NCBI RefSeq assembly: GCF_033153115.1
Contig: NW_026889777.1
Location: forward strand, 7,564,001-7,628,000
DNA from: Saccostrea echinata
Taxonomy: Eukaryota
Direction of reading: 5' to 3'
Length of the DNA stretch: 64,000 nt
Part shown: positions 311-1,074 of the stretch, one piece after another
How the letters are laid out: every line of letters starts with the position of its first letter
Position numbering within the stretch: the stretch's first letter is position 1
Translations under genes and position numbers: made by a program
The notes under the pieces: model-generated
Databases searched by the model: none
Seen by the model: the letters and a program-made list of their open reading frames with translations, nothing else
What the model was told of the DNA's origin: nothing

Positions 311-341
311 CCATACCCTATTTGGATGTTTGACAGTACAG

Positions 342-1074
342 ATGATTTGTGAAGCTTGTGGACTAATATTTAAGAATAGAAAAACGCTTCAACAACATAT
401 AAAAGAAATTCATAGCGAAAGTGTAAATATATTTCTCTGTGATTTTTGTGGAAGACCATTTTCCAGAAAATTTAATCTAAAGAAACATTTGAACCGTGTG
501 CACAGAAAACTTGAACTAACGATCGCGAGTAGTAAATAATTAACTAGAGAAGATTTAAAGAAAAATCAAAAAGCAGTCTACGTTCCTTTGTATGAAGATA
601 TTTCATCTGACGAGGAGTCATTTGATGTCAAAACAAATGTCCAACAACAGCCGATGTATGTACCAGAACTTGAGGACATTTCCTCAGATGAAGAGACTAT
701 TGAAGAGCAGCCGAGCGAAGCAAACGAAGAAAGATTGGAAATATTGAGTGTAATATTCGGACCTAATGGAGGAATTGCTGGCGGAAAACGGATTACGTAA
801 TGACTTTGTGGACGATTTATTACACGAGGACGCACCAGAAGTTGAAGAAAGTCAAAGTGAGAACGAACATTCCATAAACAATAGCGAACGTAGTGGAAGT
901 GCCGCGGATGTTCATCCAGTGACCATTACACATTCAGTTGGAATATCGTTAACGCGAACAACTACCGTTATGCCGAACGGGAATACTGAAATCGAAAGAC
1001 AAACCAATGTGTGTGTTAGCGAAAATATCGATCAAAGTGACGTTGACATGGACACTCTCATTGGGACATTTTAA
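342..1074 (+). pseudogene. Disrupted extra ORF of the LTR element: two C2H2 zinc fingers plus acidic region
   Basis: Fingers CEACGLIFKNRKTLQQHIKEIH and CDFCGRPFSRKFNLKKHLNRVH. ORFs 330-539 and 588-800 are in the same frame, separated only by TAA at 537-539. A frameshift near 754-800 leads into ORF 766-1074. Confidence 0.7.

Follow-up and report, generated by a model that had tools for sequence, protein, structure and literature searches.

What does a zinc-finger gene do in the env position of an oyster LTR retrotransposon? LTR retrotransposons are thought to rely on host transcription factors, and self-transactivators that bind DNA are characteristic of complex retroviruses, the foamy viruses among them. 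The window (the whole 64,000-nucleotide stretch of Saccostrea echinata DNA analysed here, G000:C28:7564001-7628000) opens with the end of a pol gene, and between this gene and the following 3' LTR lies an open reading frame, ORF3, that encodes two C2H2 fingers and a very acidic region. The preliminary description proposed that it specifies either an LTR transactivator or an anti-silencing factor. We assign a probability of roughly 60% to the reading that ORF3 is an accessory gene whose two-finger protein would bind repeated sites upstream of the TATA box of its own LTR and activate transcription of the element.

The element and its third gene

The 5' LTR, PBS, gag and pol of the element all lie upstream of the window, into which runs the pol 3' end (1-310, + strand; sequence, and Pfam in a sister copy), an integrase C-terminal tail closing with VPRRLRD and a stop codon at 308-310. 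A polypurine tract (PPT; 1293-1304, + strand, read from the sequence) precedes the 3' LTR (1305-1789, + strand), which starts with TG at 1305, ends with CA at 1788-1789 and is directly followed by the TSD TTAT (1790-1793). The pol stop, the PPT, both LTR ends, the two fingers and the acidic tract are where the preliminary description had placed them, but 1305-1789 is an LTR with a foreign core: 1409-1700 (+ strand) belongs to a high-copy MITE-like repeat unrelated to the element, one arm of which sits in place of the TATA/R region. This arm gave 1412 first-look candidates in the genome, 40 of which were scored, the top ones at 96-100%. It begins 2 nt past the TATA-proximal palindrome described below, and elsewhere it often occurs as inverted pairs ~460 nt apart.

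A matching 5' LTR, with a PBS, was found at G000:C28:7557826-7558203, and the element is flanked by a 4-nt TSD. Copy L013 likewise has a 4-nt TSD, and L011 a TSD with one mismatch; the latter, whose ORF3 is open, carries an insertion of ~845 nt inside pol (oriented 5561-6405). An undamaged LTR measures ~380 nt. Outside the repeat arm, 9 mismatches separate the two LTRs of the window copy over 190 aligned bases; this copy is an old, dead member of its family. Seven other copies with ORF3 and 32 LTR matches of the family were found. In sister copy L017/L018, Pfam domains follow gag in the Gypsy order RT, RNase H, integrase, and the best PDB match of pol is Ty3 Gag-Pol (E 7e-97). The TG...CA LTR pair, PBS, PPT, TSD, the order of gag and pol, and an RT closest to Ty3 place the element in the Metaviridae; it is a full-length Ty3/Gypsy LTR retrotransposon with ORF3 as its third gene. 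The primer tRNA may be tRNA-Leu; no tRNA gene was found at the 12 of 173 PBS-pattern loci examined.

ORF3 (342-1139, + strand) starts with an ATG at 342 and ends with a stop at 1137-1139. Its frame is naturally open in sister copy P0001, with 265 codons from the Met matching window position 342; compared with this frame, the window copy is interrupted three times, by a stop at 537-539, by a frameshift near 754 and by another near 1071. The reading frame first described at 330-1074, with one stop and one frameshift, is real, but its limits and the number of its breaks had to be revised. Finger 1 (348-413, + strand) has N, K, T and Q at helix positions -1, +2, +3 and +6, and finger 2 (438-503, + strand) has R, F, N and K. 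Both keep an intact C-x2-C...H-x4-H frame with base-contact residues at -1, +3 and +6, and they are joined by a non-canonical linker of six residues. Pfam recognizes zf-C2H2 here (E 3.5e-11) and the zinc fingers alone in ORF3. The finger-2 combination of R at -1, N at +3 and R or K at +6 was present in 12 of 14 proteins read, compared with 0.56% of 3595 background fingers.

The fingers are followed by a short conserved segment and then by two acidic [YL]EDISSDEE motifs (591-617 and 669-695, within 591-695, + strand) that are kept across families. Motifs of the type [YLV][ES]D[IV][ST]SDE occur in 21 of the 27 sequences spanning all or part of this stretch (28 were listed with an 80-residue query). 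Next comes an acidic tract (696-920, + strand), predicted to be disordered with two short helices, which is the likely activation region. Asp and Glu make up 32% of residues 83-190 in the open sister copy, in keeping with the strong acidity first noted. The conserved C-terminal domain (925-1139, + strand) is predicted to form a long beta-hairpin and a helix (mean pLDDT 81). In fold searches this domain reached a best Z of 2.4 and had no Foldseek match at E 0.001. The whole ORF3 model matched zinc fingers only (best AFV1p06, Z 4.8, rmsd 1.0, 41 aligned), and a search of the ESM Atlas with homologue P0025 returned generic zinc-finger clusters only. ORF3 is not env-like, because it has neither a hydrophobic segment (maximum 19-residue hydropathy 0.69) nor a furin motif. 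Readings of ORF3 as an antisense ORF or an artefact were also rejected.

Families, selection and expression of ORF3

The C-terminal 80 residues of ORF3 gave 41 matches in the genome among 60 scored candidates. The 30 loci retrieved represent eight families with ~29-35% protein identity between them; in these eight, ORF3 stands directly behind integrase and ahead of a PPT, and its Met precedes the first Cys by 1-5 residues. We call this gene type A. Further families were drawn from the first 60 of 173 PBS-pattern matches, in list order. Eighteen of these loci carry a type A ORF; another kind of finger ORF (type B) is present at 14, and a finger-BTB ORF (type C) at three. Six have no ORF3 (three integrase-first, one chromodomain-like, two without an RT match), five are deleted or truncated, and 14 have no RT or integrase match. 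Type A ORF3 was found in 13 families of the genome in total. In an RT tree built with FastTree from elements of this genome only (43 of 44 rows), type A forms one clade with support 0.999, and types B and C together are its sister (0.80); the RT and integrase trees disagree at weak nodes.

In 21 pairwise comparisons of ORF3, which share reference copies and are hence not independent, dN/dS was below 1 in 19 (significantly in 10), above 1 in one and undefined in one. It was 0.18-0.20 in the most diverged pairs. Within the window family it was 0.37-0.47 in the older subfamilies (0.26-0.52 for integrase), and for the window copy's own ORF3 it was 0.66, which is not significant. Type A ORF3 is under purifying selection, for which the preliminary description had proposed a test. 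L024 and L031/L042 have nearly identical fingers; since their ORF3 dS is 0.6-0.7 beside a dS of 0.04 in the adjoining integrase, the 3' half of ORF3 has been exchanged between subfamilies.

Full-length relatives of ORF3 exist in RefSeq for Crassostrea, Magallana, Saccostrea and Ostrea, annotated as uncharacterised or host-like zinc-finger proteins. In a search of representative proteins, 12 of the 150 matches listed extend beyond the fingers, and poly-finger proteins dominate. A metagenome scan gave one decayed ORF3 locus, L134. Given that C2H2 genes are abundant, that the window copy is broken and that a host-like locus, L136, has similar paired fingers, ORF3 could be a piece of a host gene that was captured and does nothing for the element. 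This is hardly credible against the 29-35% identity kept across families, frames of 262-287 codons open at 10 places, purifying selection and full-length relatives in other oysters. The open conserved frames, the dN/dS values and the single RT clade largely refute it.

The acceptor-like TTTGACAG at 329-336 is present in the sequence, and two AG dinucleotides before the ATG (329-341, + strand) are weak candidate splice acceptors. The earlier proposal of an env-like acceptor at this place is not supported in its original form: across the clade the position of the AG is not conserved. The gap between pol stop and ATG ranges from -20 to +31 nt; in one family ORF3 overlaps pol by 20 nt and no AG precedes the ATG. 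The pyrimidine tracts have a median of 0.53 in type A vs. 0.73 in the sister clades (p 0.049). Among contigs of six runs guessed to be RNA, which are blind to transcript starts and levels, no GT-AG joint was seen for the window element or L108; one contig joint, 3423 to 6448, ends in AA..AC and is not a splice. Type A ORF3 could be expressed by splicing or by termination-reinitiation. Splicing is plausible solely by analogy with the sister types, whose splice signals are plain. In type B elements, donor-like sites follow TATA by ~70-97 nt, and the acceptors ahead of the ATG are rich in pyrimidines. Type C elements have no ATG after the acceptor; their LTR contains a conserved first exon of 12-13 codons and its phase-0 donor.

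LTR sites and their match to the fingers

Two inverted sites in the window LTR are predicted to bind ORF3, a distal one, TAGCTA-N5-TAGCTG (1363-1379), and a TATA-proximal one, CAGCTC-N5-GAGCTG (1390-1406), both listed without strand; in intact LTRs the latter lies 28 nt before TATA. Type A LTRs, otherwise unalignable, have repeated GAG-containing sites just ahead of the TATA box. In 9 of 13 families, a scan free of any recognition code detected an inverted pair whose start lies 24-30 nt upstream of TATA; there is usually another copy farther up. The same scan of shuffled LTRs gave a mean of 0.6 families and a maximum of 4 in 1000 shuffles; at even spacers there was none. Three families have GAGGAG direct repeats, their most frequent hexamer, in place of palindromes. 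The palindrome is concentric (spacers of 3, 5, 7 and 9 all score), so its register is set by its centre. The sites stand at a set distance from TATA, itself 107-287 nt from the LTR start, and at no set distance from the LTR end; this speaks for a role in transcription rather than in integration or reverse transcription.

In finger helices R prefers G, N prefers A, E at +6 prefers C, K prefers G or T, T prefers C or T, A prefers T and D prefers C. These preferences were taken as the code after the LTRs of the first 12 families were known. In the canonical C2H2 model, as given in the accessible part of PMC5509000, positions +6, +3 and -1 read bases 1, 2 and 3 of a triplet. The half-site was predicted as the finger-2 triplet followed by the finger-1 triplet, and each family's code was scored on each family's U3. 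Permutation of cognate against non-cognate pairings gave p = 2e-4 for 12 families and 8e-4 for the 10 that remained when near-duplicates were dropped; with the finger order swapped, p was 0.29. With the register fixed, code and LTR agree at 55 of the 58 coded positions in 12 families, most matches being the GAG shared by families of common ancestry. The misses are three coded positions, in L027, L033 and L034. L094 was omitted from this count as ambiguous, yet it is counted among the 9 of 13 above: the halves of its proximal palindrome, TTAGGG, do not fit, and a repeated ATGGAG does.

Individual residues vary with the bases that they should contact. Finger-1 R at +6 goes with G in 6 of 7 families vs. 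0 of 5 without it, and N at +3 with A in 10 of 10 vs. 0 of 2 (p 0.015 each), and Q or L at finger-1 +6 is accompanied by C or T in 5 of 5. In family L109, finger-2 E at +6 goes with CAG where others have GAG; in L024, with S at +3, the middle base is variable; and in the window family, with K at finger-2 +6, the base is G or T (GAGCTG at 1390-1406, TAGCTG at 1363-1379). On the integrase tree the finger-1 +6 residue changes several times, with weak branch support. In a blind test with the code fixed beforehand, NAG-GAG was predicted for a new family, L129, and AAGGAG/CAGGAG was found at -28. Because L129 is sister to the CAGGAG family, its site may be partly inherited. Neither L134, a decayed element whose LTR has loose GNGGAG-type pairs, nor L135, which has no LTR, offers a clean test.

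The palindromes might instead be host-factor sites or hairpins; ORF3 would then target RNA, genes of the host or the integration complex. Inverted repeats are able to fold, the six-residue finger linker is non-canonical, and three misses and one ambiguous family are on record. That reading has no account, however, of half-sites that shift with each family's fingers or of the same hexamer recurring as direct repeats in three families, and we regard it as very unlikely. LTR sites beside TATA, together with a site sequence that tracks the finger residues, argue that ORF3 very probably binds a cognate site in its own LTR promoter.

In the mechanism that we propose, each ORF3 monomer would read 6 bp, finger 2 the 5' triplet and finger 1 the 3' triplet, and a tail-to-tail pair of monomers would occupy the palindrome. 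Its centre is faced by the finger-2 triplets, so the C-terminal ends of the monomers should meet there, which suggests a dimer. The acidic tract and the YEDISSDE motif would recruit the host transcription machinery. Basal transcription from the LTR would then yield ORF3, and ORF3 would amplify only its own family in a private positive-feedback loop. If binding is granted, we consider activation probable.

The same sequence evidence for cognate binding would also suit an anti-silencing factor that clears repressive chromatin from its own LTR, in the manner of VANC, without touching the transcription machinery. VANC target motifs are family-specific, and the sites of a VANC-type factor are expected to be spread along the element. 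ORF3 sites are confined to U3 at a set distance from TATA, and 10 elements scanned internally had no perfect or one-mismatch cognate palindrome and only four two-mismatch matches, a chance level. Single half-sites lie 96-250 nt ahead of ORF3 in L069, L117, L118 and L096. SPOC-domain chromatin and RNA regulators bind phosphoserine LSD motifs, according to the available text of PMC9834408, and the YEDISSDE motif resembles these, a likeness only, which would sit well with anti-silencing. We judge an anti-silencing function unlikely. Purifying selection, a fixed position in 13 families, conserved contact residues and a cognate site by each TATA favour a transactivator over a generic anti-silencing factor. 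Sequence evidence thus supports the preliminary description in treating ORF3 as an element-encoded, transcription-factor-like accessory gene, and inclines toward the first of the two roles that it left side by side.

ORF3 could also bind its LTR as a repressor, a feedback brake on family expression or copy number, and the sequence evidence gives no split between activation and repression. The proximal site ends ~11 nt before TATA, where a bound protein could obstruct assembly of the preinitiation complex; copy numbers are low (the 7 other ORF3 copies and 32 LTR matches of the window family); and corepressor recruitment is possible for SPOC-type motifs. A long acidic tract with scattered hydrophobic residues is, on the other hand, the usual make-up of activation domains, and activating sequences are commonly laid out as tandem sites ahead of a TATA box. 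Repression seems to us quite unlikely, and transactivation remains the reading that we prefer.

Known self-regulators and sister clades

Foamy virus Tas binds and activates its own LTR promoter (PMC4929722; PMC8670036, in the parts accessible to us). Like Tas/Bel1/BTas of the Spumaretrovirinae, ORF3 belongs to an element, lies between pol/env and the 3' LTR and would target its own LTR promoter, with activation deduced here. Like those of Tas, its predicted cognate sites stand in the LTR promoter, here beside TATA, as judged by sequence alone. Unlike Tas, it is a C2H2 two-finger protein of a Ty3/Gypsy element without env. The Tas system has a second cognate site, at the internal promoter from which the transactivator is expressed; inside the 10 elements no cognate palindrome with at most one mismatch suggests such a promoter. 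Tas was not among the matches listed in the fold searches, and none of the searches points to homology with it.

Other elements share single features with ORF3. Bdelloid LTR retrotransposons likewise captured a third gene in the env position, in family-specific types, but theirs encode a GDSL esterase, a DEDDy exonuclease, transmembrane or coiled-coil proteins, and the accessible text of PMC5408684 has no mention of zinc or C2H2. The plant elements Grande, RIRE2 and Retand have accessory ORFs between pol and the 3' LTR for which retrovirus-like regulatory roles were proposed; in the part available of PMC7264820 these are mostly antisense and have no stated function, zinc finger or cognate DNA site. 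VANC of the VANDAL (MuDR) elements (10.1101/2024.04.02.587720, as excerpted) is also a transposon-encoded regulator of its own family, but it belongs to a DNA transposon and has a MAIL1-like fold, not C2H2, whereas ORF3 sites are promoter-confined. The env-carrying errantiviruses among metazoan Ty3/gypsy elements have a third ORF between integrase and PPT as well; ORF3 differs from it by having no hydrophobic segment or furin site, and neither C2H2 nor zinc finger appears as a term in the accessible text of PMC13524379.

In the literature searched, to which Repbase, most subscription journals and supplements did not belong, we found no zinc-finger ORF3 or self-transactivator in an element of this kind. 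The mollusc LTR survey PMC6238403, which names the Gypsy clades MolGy1-16, Mag, CsRN1 and Cigr-1, mentions neither zinc nor ORF in its available text, zinc is absent from that of PMC11117352, and that of PMC2774666 describes no such element. An earlier annotation of the ORF is possible; the match of fingers to LTR is the least likely to have been described before. Self-regulators as such are known, and what would be new is one encoded by a Gypsy element with C2H2 fingers matched to its own LTR. We lean slightly toward the broader view that an env-less clade of animal LTR retrotransposons independently evolved self-regulation in the style of complex retroviruses, through a family-private C2H2 transactivator and a matching promoter site that repeatedly changed together. 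If so, the control logic of self-transactivators would have arisen outside retroviruses, and family-specific bursts and latency would have a mechanism. Solo LTRs together with expressed ORF3 could rewire host genes; oyster genome annotations at present list ORF3 among ordinary host zinc-finger genes. The 13 co-evolved protein-DNA pairs in one genome would form a natural panel on which the claim is directly testable.

Zinc-finger ORF3s of other kinds occur in the sister clades, so regulatory genes with zinc fingers may have occupied the env position of a large Gypsy lineage for a long time and escaped notice. Type B ORF3 was seen at L067, L071, L073, L074, L077, L079, L082, L103, L106, L107, L116 and L124 and, broken, at L072 and L075. 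It has an MxNTKxT start, C2HC and C2H2 fingers, acidic WLxxDPG, RKxTxP and TQT motifs, the last of which we take to be of the dynein light chain LC8 type, and a C-terminal hairpin; it matches type A over the fingers only. Type C ORF3 (L125:6189-6947, L099, L121) combines zinc fingers with a BTB domain of the KCTD type (PF02214, E 1.5e-14) in one protein. The same PBS is present at L081, L084, L114 and L119, where integrase precedes RT, the order of Gmr1, or has a chromodomain-like tail; a finger ORF3 is absent from all four. At L139 (G000:C4:2608500-2611500), integrase is followed by a fourth kind of finger ORF, which has a YSDISS motif and an acceptor rich in pyrimidines. The host-like L136 (G000:C1:5874900-5877900) has three paired-finger units with a spacing similar to that of ORF3, and is possibly a donor or a derivative of it. 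In the gag of type A elements, which lies upstream of the window (example L013:7044-8459, - strand), a strongly hydrophobic stretch resembling a membrane hairpin occurs near the N-terminus in 9 of 9 first ORFs (maximum hydropathy 2.2-3.2) and in 0 of 12 others; the type A finger gene goes together with a Gag that is predicted to be membrane-anchored.
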